From: Octopus vulgaris
Lineage: Eukaryota
Assembly: GCA_951406725.2 (NCBI GenBank)
Contig: OX597819.1
Span: forward strand, 65,038,001 to 65,102,000
DNA: 64,000 nucleotides
Direction: 5' to 3'
Shown: piece after piece, positions 3,301 through 38,312 of the stretch
Numbering within the stretch: position 1 is the stretch's first letter
Layout: every line of letters begins with the position of its first letter
Notes under the pieces: generated by a model
Told to the model about the DNA's origin: nothing
The model's input: only the letters and a program-made list of their open reading frames with translations
The model's database searches: none
Program-made: the position numbers and the translations under genes

Positions 3301-4097
3301 AAACTCCCTTGCTTTAATTGTATCGCGGAAGGGCTAGTTGGAGCTCAATCTTCCGTGTAATTTTACAGGGGTTAGATAAACGGAAGGACCGTAGTAGTTT
3401 GTGTTTGAATTGGAGAATGGAATATGTTAAGTGAAATCATGATTAATTGATTGATTTCAATTAGCACACGTTATTGAGGTTTCCTTCGCATTTTTATGTG
3501 ATTACATTTTAAACGTTCTGAGAAGGAACCTCTGTATCTTAACAGCTTATTAAATTCTATGTCACTTGATTACAGCTTCCTCTTCTCACTTCAAAGCATA
3601 CGTGAAACCCTGCAGTAATTGTATTTCTTTTGTAGAAATCTTCATCGTGTACGAGTGCCTCTGCATACATATGAGATTTGTTTCATCTATAAACATGTCC
3701 AGTACACGTTGTGATGGAGGACCTTTCGTCTAGCCTTTGTCCTATGTAACCCTGAATTACCATACTGAAATTTTCATGTCACATGTTTAGTATTTAGTTT
3801 AGTTCTCCAAAATTCTAGTAGCAGAACGAGGAATCATACATTCTACTCAATTGTTCTGTAAATGTAATCCCCTATGAAAATTCTGTATGAAAGAATAACA
3901 GAGTAATTGCGGTTTAACATTATAACAAAGAACTAAAACTAAATTTATATAGTTTCTTCTTAAATTATACACCACATTCAAGCAGGAAAAGAAATAAATA
4001 AAAATGGAATTAAATACAAAACGAAAGCAAAACAAAATGCATAACAGTTTCTATAATGTTATCAGTTCTCAGCCAAATCCAGGCTTAAAAACAAAAT

Positions 4098-4263
4098 TAT
4101 TTACATTACTTACATTCGACGGATATTTGGCTTCATCTTGTTTTTTGTTAACACAACGTTTCGGTTGATATACCCTCCAGCCTTCATCAGGTATCTTGGG
4201 GAAATATCGAACTTGGGTTCTCATTCCTAACGGATTTTTCAATATAATAATAATAATAATAAT

Positions 4264-4296
<33 letters not shown>

Positions 4297-4298
4297 TA

Positions 4299-4395
<97 letters not shown>

Positions 4396-4575
4396 TCACT
4401 GCCAGTAATCAAACTCGGAATCTTGAGGTTAGTAGCCCGCGCTCTTAAGCACTACGCCATATGCCCGTGGGTATATCAGCCGAAACGTTGTATTAACAAC
4501 AAACAAGATGAGTAAAAATACCAATCAAATGTAAATAATGTAGATAATTCCTCATTTCTTAAATATAGAGTTGTA
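4098..4575 (-). mobile_element. Non-autonomous Penelope-like element: tRNA-like head + (AAT)n + hammerhead, with inverted terminal segment
   Basis: Minus strand order: tRNA-like head 4471-4392, microsatellite 4391-4245, body with hammerhead 4195-4150. 4471-4545 is an inverted copy of about 4100-4173. Homologous copies at 9775/11200, 17319 and 37880. Confidence 0.8.
4150..4195 (-). ncRNA. Minimal type-I hammerhead ribozyme motif (PLE-type)
   Basis: GAUAC-CUGAUGA-A-GGCUG-(10 nt)-CAACC-GAAA-CG-UU-GUGUU. Intact CUGAUGA/GAAA/UH core, 5-bp stem I, palindromic ACGU stem III. Stem II has one mismatch here; the inverted arm has the pairing CAGCC. Confidence 0.7.
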
Positions 4576-4754
4576 AAATCAAACTTTTATGAAACATTGA
4601 GCGTTACCACGGGGATATGATATGAATCCGAATGCCCGCCTTTTGTACATGCAGGAAATAAAAATAGTGAATTATATTATGAATAATGGCAATAGTTTAT
4701 ACAAATTCAGGAAATATTGATTGGAAAATATGACTCAAAGTCAGAAACTTCATG

Positions 4755-8898: not shown

Positions 8899-9925
8899 TA
8901 TAGATATCGATACACGTACACAAATATGAGAGAATGATATCTTTTGGTAGAGAATTGATGAGGAATGAGCACCATCTTTTCCTGTTTGTGAATTTTAACT
9001 CTGTTGCTTTGGTTTATTCCTGTTCAAACTTTGAAGCTTATTATTTAATGTACTGCCACACTGTTTTTATTAATTTTTTTTCACCTAATTCAGTCCCATA
9101 TGCATTTACATTGATGCATGTGATCGTTTGCTTCAGCCACACGATTGGATTATACCTTGAATAAAACTGCATGGGAATGGTAAATTCGGATGTTTATGAA
9201 TTGCAATGGATTTGATACAAATCATCTAAATGCTACACAAAGGAACACTACAGCACTTATTCCAGCTAATATCCCTGTCGGATTGGAATTTATTGGACAA
9301 AAATACATTAATAAATAAATTTTGAAGATATAAATTTCTCCATTCATTATTATGATGAGACTTCGTATACTACATGAAATCCACTGAAGCAAACTCAACA
9401 TTTACGTATCGATAAAGATTCAGCTTAATTGCTTAATTTAAACGATTATGAATTTTTTTCTTTCATTCTACGTGGTTGGCTGGATCCGGATTGTATCACA
9501 TAGCTTACCAGGTATATGCACGGATTTCAAATCACTTTATGTTTATACGTATGTATGTATGTATGTATGTATGTATGTATGTATGTATGTATCTATGTAT
9601 GTATGTATGTATGTATGTATGTATTTATGTATGTATGTATGTATGTATGTATGTATGTATGGATGGATGGATGGATGTATGTTTGTCATCATTTAGTGCC
9701 ATTTCTGATAGGTAAAGAATCAGTTTCTAGTCGAGATCCAGGGCTCTTTCAATGGAATTTCAACAACACCAACGGACGGATATTTGTCTTCAACTTGCGT
9801 TTTTGTTGACACAAAGTTTCGGTTGATATACACTCCAGCCTTCATTGGGTATCTTGCGGAAATTTCGAAGCCGGGTTCTCATTCCTAAGGTATCTTTCGA
9901 CGTTATTATAATTATTATTATTATA

Positions 9926-9992
<67 letters not shown>

Positions 9993-9995
<3 letters not shown>

Positions 9996-10636
9996 GATAA
10001 ACTTAGATATGTTTCGACCAAAGATTGGTCCAGGCCATGTCTAACTTAATAGCACCACCTGATAGAATTATTCGAATTCTGTTTAAGTCAAGTTTTGTTT
10101 ATGGTCCATTCAAGTAGTGAGTTCTTGTTGGCTGAGTTGTATCCAATTATGGGTGGCTTATCTGGTATTCTTTGAAGGAATCTATCCAGACTCCGTTTAA
10201 AGTTGATGGGATCCTTTTCCTCTTTGATCTCCCTCGGGACAATGTTAAATAGGGCAGGGCCTGTTGATGAAAAGAAATTATGTTGCAGTGTACATGTATG
10301 CTGTGACCTGGAATTGGGTAGGGGACGTATGGCCCGTGGTCCCAGTCTTGGATGAACCTTGAAGCTAATGTTAAGGTCGTTTGGGCAAAGTTGGCGGTAT
10401 ATTCTCCACATCGTACAAATGATGTACCGCTCACGGCGACGCTGGAGAGAGTAAAGTTTCAAGGCTTTAAGGCGATCCCAATAATCGAGAGCAGCCATGC
10501 CTTCAATTCGTTTAGTGAGTGCTCTCTGGGGTGACTCAATCCTGGAGATGTTTTGTCTTGTATGGGGAGACCACAGTGGGCAGCAATATTCAAGGTGTGG
10601 CCGTACAAAGGAGGAGAAAAGTGTTATGATGACACA
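9993..10636 (-). mobile_element. CR1-group LINE, 5'-truncated: ORF2 C-terminus + 3' UTR
   Basis: Stop-free frame 10633-10088: VRPHLEYCCPLWSPH..IESPQRALTKRI..LDYWDRLKALKLYSLQRRRERY..FKRSLDRFL, typical of CR1/L2-group ORF2 ends. Confidence 0.85.
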
Positions 10637-10665
10637 TATTATTATTATTATAATTATTATTATTG

Positions 10666-10732
<67 letters not shown>

Positions 10733-10733
<1 letters not shown>

Positions 10734-11093
10734 TATTGCCGTTGCACTGCTTCTAACACCTCTTATTTTTCGACCACCTTCCGGGGTATTCGAGCTGTTC
10801 CAAGCAGCGCTGTTTTCTGCAAGTGCTCCACCTTTATTGCTGCCCCTATTTGTTCCACGTACTTCTCTAGATTTTTGCTCACTGTTCCCATGGTTCTGAC
10901 AATTATTGGTACTACTACTACCTTTTTCATCGAGCACAACTGCTTCACCTCCCAAGCTAACCTGTCCTATCTCTCGGTTTTCTTTCTTCCTTATCGCATA
11001 CCTTGTTGTCAGCTGAGCATGCCATCTCTATGATCCAGCATAGTTTGTTCTCTTTCTCAATTAAGACCGGCTTCTCATGGTCAGACTGACTCA
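10733..11093 (-). mobile_element. Dong/R4-clade non-LTR retrotransposon 3' end (restriction-like endonuclease region)
   Basis: KPVLIEKENKLCWIIEMACSADNKVCDKE and VVPIIVRTMGTVSKNL..LQKTALLGTARIPRKV (frameshifted); (TAA)n on both sides. Confidence 0.85.
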
Positions 11094-11114
11094 TATTATT
11101 ATTATTATTATTCA

Positions 11115-11184
<70 letters not shown>

Positions 11185-11640
11185 GTTGTTATTGTTGTTC
11201 ATGTCACTGACTGGAATCCAACTCGGAATCTTGGGATTAGTAGTCCTCATCTCTTAAATATAAAGTAATTTTGTGCGTGTGTATACGTGCAGATTCCTAT
11301 GTTTTGTTTTACATCTATCTTCTCATGCTTATAGCTACATATCTACACATACTCATATATACTTAAATGATAAACATCTCGAGAGTTTTACAGACGTTTA
11401 CAGTTCCATTGATGGATCCGATCGGTAGTTTCCGAATAAACTTTTTCTTTTCTGGTTTTGGGAGGACTAATTTTCTACAGTTTAGTATTTAGGCAGTGTC
11501 TAACGTATGCCAGGTCCCGAATTATTTCAGGTATAAACCTAAACTTGTAATAACTGAAAAACTGAAAATTTCTCAATAATCCAGCGTAGGTACTCCCATT
11601 TTCACTGATCTTCAGCTTTATGTACGTATGTATATATGTA

Positions 11641-16042: not shown

Positions 16043-17318
16043 ATGTATGTATGTATTGCAATAATATTTGGACTACCCACATCCTTTTCAATTCTGTGAA
16101 GATTTTGTTTCGCCTAGATATATTTTTGCCACTTTCCTTTGAGATGTTAACCTGTTTATGTGTAAAAAGGACATTCTAATAGATTTATGCATAGCCTCTA
16201 ATATATCATATATTTAGAAAAATGACTGTGAGGTAAGATCTTTGCTTTCTAACGACATGGTTCCTTTCTGAGTCCTCAGCAGGGCACCTACAACAAGTGT
16301 CCTCTACAATAAACCCAGGCTGACACTTGTCGTGTGGTTTGGTAGAGGGAAACTAAAGGAACCTTCTCCTATATATATATGTGTGTGTATCTAGGTACAT
16401 TTTTCTATGTAAGTCCTGAAAAAACCATATGACAAAATTCGTTGACTTATATTTACGCCCCATGAAATGCAGCGGCTTTATAAGGTTTCGACTAAAACCC
16501 TTCAAATTTGTACCCCTGCTTGGCTGCAGTCTAATGACTGAAACGCCTGTGTTTCTCAACCATCTTCCATCTATAGACCACTCTCATTACTATTTTATTC
16601 TGGTAGACCCCCGCCTCCACATCCATTCGTTATTTAAAAATTAGTTCTATAGATGCTTTATTTTTTATCAAGATTCATATTTTGTTTTTCATTCATTAAC
16701 TTGTCTCAGTAGAATTATGTAAAACGTTAGAGGAAGAAACCTAATTGTTCCTTGCAATACATACCAATGCATACATTTAAAACAAAACTTTTCAAGTGCC
16801 TTTGAAACATTATTGTGAATACACAATTTACTATTTTGTTACGTGGATACTCAAACATCCTGTATGAACCCACAGGGACCATATCAACCCCTGAGGAGAA
16901 CTACTGAATTAAGTTATAAAAGACAAAGTACACAGTATATGACATTCAGTATATAATCCTTGCTTCAAACTTGTACAGCCTGGTCATTGAAATTAATTTC
17001 TTGTATGTTTTGTTAGAGATGACAATGAAAATTTAATAATGTACTTATAGATTCTAAAAGAATTATCACCATGAATTTTGAAAAATGTTGTATATGGCGA
17101 TAAATAAAATAGAAATGTATATAAAGCTACAGATACGGAAATACTTTTATTCTCAGACGAAGGATAATGGTAATAATATAGCATATATAACAGGATAAAT
17201 TGTCCCCGCTTTGCAGAAAAAAAACTGTCGGCGGCTAGGTATGAAACTCGAACTCACATCCTTCAAGCGCTTTACCCAACGACAAATTCTTCTGCAAATT
17301 GTGGATATATTATTCTAG

Positions 17319-17464
17319 ATTATTTACATTATTTACATTTGACAGATATTTGTTCTCATCTTGTTTGTTGTTACCACAACGTTTCGGCTGATGTACGCTC
17401 CAGATTTCATTAGGTGTTTTGGAGAAATTTCTCATTCCTAAGATATTTTTCGATGTTGTTTTTG

Positions 17465-17542
<78 letters not shown>

Positions 17543-17655
17543 TCACTGTTTGTAATCGAACTCGGAATCTTGGTGTTAGTAGCCCGCGCTCTTAACCACG
17601 ACGCCATATGTCCGTGGGACAAACAAGATGAGGACAAATATCTGTCAAATGTAAA
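17319..17655 (-). mobile_element. tRNA-head/hammerhead PLE family copy with inverted end; possible TCTAG TSD
   Basis: Same layout as 4098-4545; hammerhead core decayed (CUAAUGA); tctag at 17314-17318 and 17656-17660. Confidence 0.8.
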
Positions 17656-17848
17656 TCTAGCTTTATAAGACGCTATCGTACGTTAAATTAAACTTACATT
17701 GAAAGTCAAATAAAATTTGCTTTAGAGGCGTTGAGATGGATTGAAAAAATACAGATAAGAAAATAATTTTATTCTCAAACGCAGGATAATGCTAATAATA
17801 TAGCATGAACAGGATAAATTATCTATATTTTTCAGAAAAATCTGTCAG

Positions 17849-18199: not shown

Positions 18200-18364
18200 C
18201 AGGCGCTGGTGTGGCTGTATAGTAAGAAGCTTGCTACGCAACCACATGGTCCCGGGTTCAGCCCCACTGCGTAGCACCTTGAGCAAGCGACTTCTATTAT
18301 AGCCTCGGCCGACCAAAGTCTTTTGAATGGATTTGATAGACGGAAACTGAAAGATGCCCGTCGC

Positions 18365-18415
<51 letters not shown>

Positions 18416-36270: not shown

Positions 36271-37879
36271 CTGCTCAGAATAAACCTAACACTGCACTTC
36301 GCACAGCTTTAGTGCATCAACGGCACACTGAGCGTGCTTTCCAGAAGGCACTGGTAACAAACCAAAATGTTTGCAAGGACAATTTTAATTCAAACTGATC
36401 TATCGATATTAATATAACTCGTTTATGTAATTCATTACTCTGCCATTATATTTCATAGCAACATCACTGCGATAGTTAATCTATGTAAACGTTATTTACG
36501 TTATAAATCTTAATTCTGCAATTGAATTCCTTTTTAATGTGAGTCTGATTCTATTCTAGTATACATTTTTAGTTTTCCTTTTCAATGTCATATTCAACAG
36601 ATATCTTAACAGTTTCATTCCGATGTATTTTTAATAACTATTCTATTATTTTTGTCTGAATTAGATGTCTAAATCTAAAATTGAATCTTGAATTTTAATT
36701 AATTTGCGAATTTTACAATACATTTGGTGTGTTGTTTGCCCAATGCCACACTCATTTTAATATCACTTTCAAAACATTCATCAGTTTCTTTACAGAAGTT
36801 TTGTTTCCTATTTATAGATCTTTTTCTAAGACAATGGAATTACATTAGATTTAGATTACCTGGAGCGTAACCATTGTTTCATTAAGCCTATTCTTTAGCT
36901 TTTCCATAACGAGACAGATGAATAACGCGAAGAAATTAATTTATTTCCCTAACAAATCCTTCCTCTCAACATAAGTAAAAGATTGCATTGCTACATTTCT
37001 TTTCTTTAATTTCGAATTATAATAAAACATTCTGAGACCAGCGACCTCAGAAACTGCATTATTGTATATATACACCCTTTGTGTGTACGAAAGTGAGTTC
37101 ATAAAGAATAGTTGGCGATATCGGCAGGTGTGAATGGAACACTTTTAAGAATCCCGCTATTTCTTTAATTCGAAATTAAGAATTTATCTTTCTTCCAATG
37201 TTCATGTGTAGGAGAGTGATGAAGTTAAAACTGATGTAAGTTAGTCGGCGTTGAACAGTTGATGGCATGCTTTAGTTTAGATGAAATGGGTTCTCTTGCA
37301 ATGTAAAATGGTTAAACATAGAAGACGCCGAGGGAAAGGATGTTGAAAACCCAATGCAGCTTAATACAGAAAGCAGGGGTTATATCTATGTCCTGACACT
37401 TCTTAGATATGTGTTCAAAGTGTGGGATATGCGGATGTCAAACATGTATCGCTGCTAAATATCAATATGCTTTCTACCCACAACCGAAATAACAGAGGAT
37501 CTCAAATCGACTACTTTAAAATGACAAGGACATCTCCAACAGCAGCAGCAGCCGTTCAAGTATTTGGACCTGGAGATCTCCATTTCCAGCGACTTCGAGG
37601 GCCACCTCCCAGTGGTGTCGGGCATCAACGAAGAGCCCTCAACTACAACAAGACGACCAAAGTTTTTTGTCCAAGGTCTTGGGTCTCCCGCACCTTAGTC
37701 CTAGACCATCACCTAATCACCCTTACCCGTCTTGTTGCTTAACAACAACAACAACATCAGCAACAACAGCAGCAGCGTTATGAGAAAGGTAGGTAAGAAC
37801 AATGCAGTCAGAAAAAAGGAAGAGTAAAGTAAACACCACTCCGCAAAGTCTGTAAATCATAATATCAAATAAACCCATA

Positions 37880-38312
37880 CATCATTTACATTATTTACAT
37901 TTGATGGATATTTGTCCTCATCATGTTTGTTGTTAATACAACATTTCGGCTCATATACCTGCCAGCCTTCATCAGGTGTCTTGGGGAAATTTGGAACCTG
38001 GGTTCTCATTCCTAACGTATAGATGATCATGTATGGAAAAATGGAGACCACCTCCCTCTGTGGGACAAAGTTAAAATGATAGAGAGAAGACACCACTGAA
38101 AAATACGAAAGCTAAAAGAAGCAGCACATATACTAGGACACAACAACCTCCTAAGGAGACCGAGTGCAGATATGAATAGCATATGGGAGGCGGTATTATG
38201 GACGGATAGGAAAATATTAGATTTATAAGCCCTAAAATTCACTCTGTAATTGACCACGGGTATATAGTATAGTGGTTAAGAGCGCGGGCTACTAACACTA
38301 AGATCCTGAGTT
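37880..38312 (+). mobile_element. Penelope-like fragment: inverted hammerhead-bearing repeat + GIY-YIG C-terminus + tRNA-like 3' UTR
   Basis: 37880-38020 is the family body (hammerhead 37935-37980, minus); 38019-38228 is the ORF end; 38254-38312 is the same tRNA-like head as 4392-4471, now on plus. Confidence 0.8.
38019..38228 (+). pseudogene. PLE GIY-YIG endonuclease C-terminus (one internal stop)
   Basis: DHVWKNGDHLPLWDKVKMIERRHH*KIRKLKEAAHILGHNNLLRRPSADMNSIWEAVL..* fits the PLE pattern H....H...W..V.I......R..KE..I....N.......IW; TGA at 38097-38099. Confidence 0.8.

Follow-up and report, generated by a model that had tools for sequence, protein, structure and literature searches.

A tRNA-derived head with A and B boxes in the pseudo-LTR of a Penelope/Poseidon-type retrotransposon of Octopus vulgaris

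Results

The composite unit and its copies in the window

The stretch of Octopus vulgaris DNA analysed here (the window: 64,000 nucleotides, positions 65,038,001 to 65,102,000 of contig OX597819.1, assembly GCA_951406725.2) is AT-rich and microsatellite-rich. On its minus strand at 4098-4575 lies a composite of a tRNA-derived head, an (AAT)n tract, a minimal hammerhead and an inverted arm, as a preliminary description of the sequence had proposed. The composite is a single insertion of two truncated copies placed head to head (Table 1). The leader in front of the head forms a short hairpin with tRNA positions 1-5 and shares a microhomology overlap with the stem-II loop of the hammerhead in the inverted arm. 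The hammerhead has a 5-bp stem I, an extra A after the core, a stem II with one mismatch in this copy and the palindromic ACGU, and is predicted to be cut between positions 4155 and 4154. Both the dimer-type minimal geometry and the predicted cut position agree with the preliminary description. The Penelope "tail" that ends the inverted arm is a continuation of the 5' region of the ORF.

Table 1. Features of the composite unit and further copies in the window (window positions)
Feature	Position	Strand	Remarks
Single insertion: 5'-truncated pseudo-LTR (pLTR) copy (-) head-to-head with a more truncated inverted copy (+)	4096..4573		Flanked by a 9/10 direct repeat
Left target-site duplication	4086..4095	+	10 bp, one mismatch to the right copy; score 6, weak alone
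Right target-site duplication	4574..4583	+	
7-nt leader preceding tRNA position 1; wall of 5' ends	4467..4473	-	
tRNA-derived head, 75 nt, cloverleaf stems decayed	4392..4466	-	Closest of 30 genome tRNAs: Arg(UCG)
Pol III A box (tRNA 8-18)	4449..4459	-	Predicted
Pol III B box	4406..4416	-	Predicted; two substitutions at conserved positions here, family majority intact
(AAT)n microsatellite, variable length, belongs to the element	4244..4391	-	An (ATT)n stretch extends this copy
ATG opening the 838-aa RT + GIY-YIG ORF in long copies	4222..4224	-	
Minimal type I hammerhead in coding frame	4150..4195	-	CUGAUGA, GAAA, ACGU and UU present
9-nt repeats that keep the reading frame; copies have their inner 3' end here (unit positions ~240-258)	4096..4115	-	
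Inverted arm, unit positions 169-278	4469..4573	+	Ends in the Penelope tail, ~4547-4573
Second composite copy	17316..17656	-	5' boundary 17618 as in the first copy; core broken; short inverted arm 17619-17656
Third copy	9775..11266	-	Hammerhead segment 9775-9898 with a broken core; head piece 11200-11257; tail piece 11244-11266
Fourth copy	37878..38312	mixed	Hammerhead arm 38020-37878 (-) joined to 38017-38312 (+)

Four copies had been counted in the 64 kb. The hammerhead segment is present at four loci, and the full composite at two of them (4096 and 17316). The core and the ACGU palindrome, described as intact, are so at one locus of the four (4098), the others carrying CUAAUGA (17316), CCAAUGA (9775) and AUGU (37878). 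A common switch point into the inverted segment had also been reported; the copies at 4471 and 17618 do leave the head at one base, 5 nt before tRNA position 1, but their inverted arms are entered at different unit positions, 169 and 199. In the third copy nested insertions split the microsatellite, and the hammerhead locus lies ~1.2 kb from the probable head. The fourth copy is an inversion, in whose plus-strand part (38017-38312) 236 nt of the GIY-YIG coding 3' end is followed by the head, and thus ties the unit to a coding element within the window.

Other retroelements lie in or beside (AAT)n tracts and split unit copies (L014:529-1450, L015, L016, L062:8210-9547 and window 10091-10732). 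Judged by motif, we take them to be a third Penelope-like element (PLE) and R4/Dong-like and L2/CR1-like pieces. The window also contains another tRNA-like high-copy repeat with (TA)n at its end (18204-18365).

Across the family, the A and B boxes of the head are kept at tRNA spacing while the stems are lost. The B box is intact in the family majority and departs from it at two conserved positions in the copy at 4098. The Rfam search proposed there as a check of the hammerhead returned neither a hammerhead nor a tRNA, at the gathering cut-off or at E≤10, and ARAGORN found no tRNA, a lowered threshold included.

The unit is the pLTR of a coding element

A genome search with the hammerhead segment gave 30 loci, one of which (L018) has GIY-YIG-like coding sequence directly 5' of the head, the arrangement also seen in the window at 38017-38252. 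When the GIY-YIG coding piece served as the query, coding sequence ran on into the head at 30/30 ORF-selected loci. The majority sequence of 105 loci contains one ORF of 838 aa, which opens 20 nt past the microsatellite, encloses the hammerhead and the 9-nt repeats in frame and has its stop 29 nt short of tRNA position 1. The element is thus ordered as ORF stop, leader and tRNA head, (AAT)n, ATG, in-frame hammerhead, 9-nt repeats, tail and the remaining ORF. At 30 ORF-start loci a truncated unit copy precedes the ORF in most cases; since the truncated unit runs straight into the ORF in full-length copies, the unit is a pLTR.

Longer copies carry a reverse transcriptase (RVT_1, E=5.8e-8). The majority ORF is 57% identical to the full-length protein P0001 (847 aa), which keeps the hammerhead-coded peptide, and 30% identical to P0006, a protein with RVT_1 and GIY-YIG matches. 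The Pfam GIY-YIG model did not match four of the family's own C-terminal pieces; the C-terminal region aligns at E=3e-19 over the PF01541 match of P0006 and, by eye, contains two Cys and two His (CCHH). Inspection by eye also showed that the linker joining RT to EN lacks a Zn-finger in the majority ORF, unlike that of Neptune/Nematis and that of the control PLE introduced below. The Penelope/Poseidon clade was called from the domain content and from this linker, a criterion taken from PMC8557442. We regard the Penelope identity of the element as practically certain.

About 14 loci were found in 75 evenly spaced 10-kb genome samples (750 kb), so the family is not a chance pattern; with a genome size of 2.8 Gb this extrapolates to ~52,000 copies (95% range 29,000-88,000). 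The copies are mostly short and 5'-truncated, none of the 14 sampled loci reaching >51 nt upstream, and diverge from the majority by ~5-6%, with no intact-looking copy. The family is also present in contigs of four sequencing runs (organisms A, D, E and F), many of which break at the head start; the reference copy lacks 1 nt at that point and contig depth does not rank the parts, so we take these contigs to show presence only. No relative with DNA context came up in two metagenome scans.

Further features were scored on 143 loci picked solely by similarity to the hammerhead/tail region, excluding two duplicate loci and five query self-hits. An inverted partner arm is present at 89/143 loci and a same-strand tandem neighbour at 3/143. 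Of the 75 scorable pairs, 70 have the tail on exactly one arm, 2 have it on both and 3 lack it. The 3' ends of copies gather at unit positions 239-259 and 272-281. Target duplications, mostly of 10-13 bp (score ≥8), flank 51/74 paired loci, compared with 1.2% in shuffled flanks. A pLTR, inversion and tail of this same kind have been described for Penelope-like elements by Craig et al. (PMC8557442), and the inverted terminus is the 5' inversion that is standard for Penelope. Three short insertions (L025, L153 and L309) have pieces of the ORF interior or start caught at the inversion junction, which points to template jumps within the element RNA. Two short insertions contain ORF-start filler, and the template RNA therefore extended past the tail.

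The hammerhead is of the minimal PLE type

The hammerhead matches the minimal type of PLEs in its core, in the extra base after A9, in the G10.1-C11.1 pair and in the palindromic stem III. The same minimal ribozyme was described by Cervera and De la Pena (PMC4209133), with a short helix I, an extra base between 9 and 10.1, G10.1-C11.1 and palindromic 15.2-16.2, mostly as single motifs in truncated copies and with opposite-strand pairs; between their account and this unit there is no difference in the ribozyme itself. Divergence among copies is 6.1% in the core and 6.9% in the flanks. A core that decays like its flanks is expected of dead copies and carries no information on the master copy. 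Cofold dimer folding did not return the active dimer, a result that carries no information. Two more minimal-hammerhead matches, in unrelated sequence, were found in the random sample (L068:~199, minus strand; L079:~2292, plus strand).

A wall of 5' ends at the head

We numbered positions so that the base before tRNA +1 is 0. The 5' ends of the copies pile up over ~20 nt at the head, forming a wall ~14 nt before the A box. Eighty-one of the 143 loci reach tRNA +14; 58 of these end between +14 and -6, 11 go past -20, and 12 are fold-backs or near-boundary ends scored to -19. Among 127 refined arms the largest peak of ends is at -6 (20 arms), with a local peak at 0/+1 (17 arms). Where arms pass -1, 37/58 end at -2 to -7; without fold-backs, which make up 25/127 arms, 23/39 end there, as against 7/16 across the next 23 nt. 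The microsatellite zone holds the ends of 32/143 loci, some of which may be split by insertions exceeding the 1.5-kb flank.

As a control we used a PLE of the same genome without A and B boxes; it is younger, belongs to another clade, and its loci were retrieved with a long-copy query. No 23-nt window contains more than 5/29 of its ends, and it has no wall. Copies reaching >100 nt past the stop number 17/29 in this control and 3/143 in the family with the head, a count that excludes L014 (a 25-nt match into another PLE) and L153 (ORF-start filler). The control element (L063:2798-3922, minus strand, and L380-L439) has copies 97-99% alike, a Zn-finger in the linker, a (TA)n end and a non-standard hammerhead-like 3' region.

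The shared 5' boundary, noticed earlier in two copies and accompanied by the proposal to plot such boundaries genome-wide, thus proves to be real: over 143 loci the ends are not random but piled at the head, and the control is without a wall. Most simply, the boundary marks the 5' end of an RNA, and we consider this probable. Against it, the ends spread over ~20 nt and not over one base, and two of the few full-length copies with an upstream pLTR reaching the head run past the wall (to -61 and -181). Since the wall lies at the edge of a hairpin and 25/127 arms are fold-backs, the behaviour of the reverse transcriptase could produce part of it.

The sense strand is depleted of T runs

Vertebrate Pol III stops at four T. 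The yeast Pol III terminator needs five T (bioRxiv 2021.08.27.457903). Over 2,640 nt the sense strand of the element contains no TTTT and 30 AAAA runs. The expected number of TTTT is 4.5 under a base shuffle (P=0.007), 2.9 under a synonymous shuffle (P=0.028), 2.5 under a dinucleotide model (P=0.07) and 1.4 under a trinucleotide model (P=0.22); TTT occurs 13 times where 21 are expected (P=0.01). In single copies the observed-to-expected ratio of TTTT is 0.21; seven sets of other retroelements taken from the same loci have 0.71-1.3, and the majority ORF of the control PLE has 8 TTTT against 8.6 expected. For five-T runs the expectation is just 0.53, so their absence is uninformative. The Phe content of relatives (2.2-6.1%) is too indirect to be used. 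The deficit is modest and comes from one evolutionary sequence; it suggests Pol III transcription and is not proof of it.

RNA reads follow the genomic copy profile

In raw RNA reads of a related organism, the depth is ~1,000-fold per direction over the hammerhead and tail, 130-330-fold over the head and mostly <12-fold over the ORF. The two directions are equal and there is no sharp start or end; the strandedness of the library is not given. This depth follows the profile of genomic copies, which is what passive co-transcription would produce, and speaks neither for nor against a Pol III transcript.

Discussion

The inverted arm, the one-sided tail, the target duplications and the minimal hammerhead are already known for Penelope. 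The unusual part is the head, derived from a tRNA and carrying A and B boxes, which lies after the stop codon and before the start codon that follows. The unit is the pLTR of an autonomous Penelope/Poseidon-type element, and we lean towards reading this head as an internal Pol III promoter, with transcription starting at the wall. The choice of Pol III as the polymerase is favoured by a little, judging from the sequence. It is weakened because Pol III RNA, having no cap, makes a poor mRNA and because the Penelope promoter that has been studied is LINE-like (PMC2377424).

In the model that we favour, Pol III would start ~13-14 nt before the A box, in the leader of the upstream pLTR of a tandem master, and read into the TTTT-free ORF. 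The element protein would bind the ORF 5' region, and reverse transcription would be primed internally at the tail, for which Poseidon_Ac gives an in vitro precedent. By running off the RNA 5' end, the reverse transcriptase would leave short solo pLTRs that share one boundary. Some cDNAs may fold back owing to the leader hairpin, and second-strand switching or fold-back would yield the inverted arm. Long copies may arise where the template is a multimeric transcript, at its downstream junction. Cutting by the hammerhead would require a dimer or the help of protein, and is perhaps dispensable for copying. Translation of the ORF would use a separate capped read-through RNA or cap-independent initiation.

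An unlikely reading, although the most probable one after the favoured model, makes the head a passive passenger: a tRNA-derived SINE head was captured once in the pLTR, the RNA is made by Pol II or by read-through, and the 5' ends pile up through stalling, template switching and fold-back of the reverse transcriptase at the leader hairpin. The leader and tRNA 1-5 do form a hairpin (-5.4 kcal/mol), the fold-back arms and the local peaks at +1 and +4 on the hairpin's 3' side are as it would have them, the copy at 4471 has microhomology between head start and hammerhead loop, and the T-run deficit is borderline under the higher-order nulls. However, arms that are not fold-backs still stop on the 5' side of the hairpin (23/39 within 6 nt), and the stronger hammerhead helices (-12.6 kcal/mol) have no comparable pile (12/143). 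A passive head also leaves the T-run deficit, and the intact boxes beside decayed stems, unexplained.

It is improbable that the wall is a Pol II start from an internal pLTR promoter, of the kind known from Drosophila Penelope, that coincides with the head by chance. The Penelope promoter is internal and LINE-like and starts transcription in the pLTR (PMC2377424), and capped RNA would account for translation; but the control PLE has no wall, the position of the wall fits A-box geometry, and the T-run deficit is not predicted.

The preliminary description had leaned towards a retrozyme or a stand-alone repeat like SM-alpha of Schistosoma. In this reading an independent short retroelement, SINE or retrozyme, spreads via hammerhead-processed multimeric or circular RNA and borrows Penelope enzymes. 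The mostly short copies that start at the tRNA head, and the SM-alpha precedent (PMC6765202), fit such an element. The reading is nevertheless largely refuted and very improbable. Coding sequence for GIY-YIG precedes the head at all 30 ORF-selected loci and the hammerhead lies inside the 838-aa ORF. The differences between 86 short and 39 long copies are confined to CpG sites, gaps and a few shifts in frequency, and none is a diagnostic substitution; copy ends lie at the tail sites and not at the ribozyme cut, and same-strand neighbours are rare (3/143). Poseidon_Ac requires ORF sequence downstream of its RT start (PMC11167929), and this segment is missing from the short copies; the retrozyme-like array of this genome also looks different. 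That array (L065:2300-4560 in C1:20000001-20010000) consists of head-to-tail ~359-nt units with a canonical-looking type I hammerhead (five on plus, two on minus) and looks like a true non-LTR retrozyme.

Cleavage of a long Pol II transcript by RNase P at the tRNA-like fold, giving a common 5' end, is hardly credible: it has the local peak at 0/+1 in its favour, but the largest peak lies upstream at -6, the fold has no intact acceptor, D or T stem, and ARAGORN detects no tRNA at a lowered threshold either.

Retrozymes are tandem arrays with canonical hammerheads (PMC7229834); here same-strand neighbours are found at 3/143 loci, and in place of a non-coding canonical type I hammerhead there is a minimal motif inside an ORF. 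Like a tRNA-derived SINE, the copies have a tRNA head with A and B boxes at their 5' end, but the head also belongs to the coding element and no diagnostic substitutions mark a separate non-autonomous lineage. Members of TRIMp3 are non-autonomous with true LTRs, and this is a coding Penelope-like element with pLTRs.

The closest relative in organization is Poseidon_Ac (PAc) of the green anole (Frangieh et al., PMC11167929), which has a single ORF of similar size with RT and C-terminal GIY-YIG, a hammerhead overlapping the ORF start, and two clusters of 3' ends 30-40 nt apart that define the tail. Its RT is primed at two internal sites that define the tail and needs downstream ORF sequence, and in vitro it does not require ribozyme cleavage (PMC11167929). 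The available portions of that paper describe no tRNA-derived promoter, and the octopus element differs from Poseidon_Ac in having the ATG before the hammerhead and a microsatellite between head and ORF. The TRIMp3 elements (Cassandra, Helenus and Ajax; Kojima 2024, PMC10886601) likewise have a Pol III promoter derived from a small RNA in a terminal repeat, with the boxes kept and probably from a captured SINE. They are short non-autonomous LTR elements, whereas the octopus head sits in a 2.7-kb coding Penelope-like element; for their autonomous partners, use of Pol II is argued to be necessary (PMC10886601). SM-alpha shares a Pol III-type head beside a type I hammerhead, in a unit of ~300 nt (PMC6765202). 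SM-alpha and the non-LTR retrozymes are, in contrast, non-coding head-to-tail arrays with canonical hammerheads (PMC6765202, PMC7229834), while the octopus unit, which belongs to a coding element, is dispersed and forms inverted pairs. Full-text searches brought up no paper on a tRNA-type promoter in a Penelope-like element; Repbase, Dfam, SINEBase, early octopus SINE papers or supplements may hold the family. The available portions of the giant squid genome paper (PMC6962438) contain nothing on such an element.

These observations carry a caution: a repeat that bears a ribozyme and looks like a SINE can prove to be a solo pLTR. Should Pol III transcription fail, the family would be an ordinary one of the Penelope kind that has captured a SINE head. 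The wall also lets the internal-initiation model of Penelope transposition be read from the genome, with the short copies as run-off products. Autonomous retroelements are assumed to need Pol II, as stated for LTR elements (PMC10886601). Here a coding element combines A and B boxes with a wall of 5' ends to match and with the absence of TTTT, which makes it directly testable whether Pol III transcribes a retrotransposon ORF. More tentatively still, an autonomous coding element may have its entire 2.7-kb RNA made by Pol III, using a tRNA promoter that it captured, and may have lost the T-run terminators from its ORF by purging; the run-off cDNAs would then form a SINE-like swarm of ~50,000 copies, and this would be a direct route from Penelope to SINE- or SM-alpha-like repeats.
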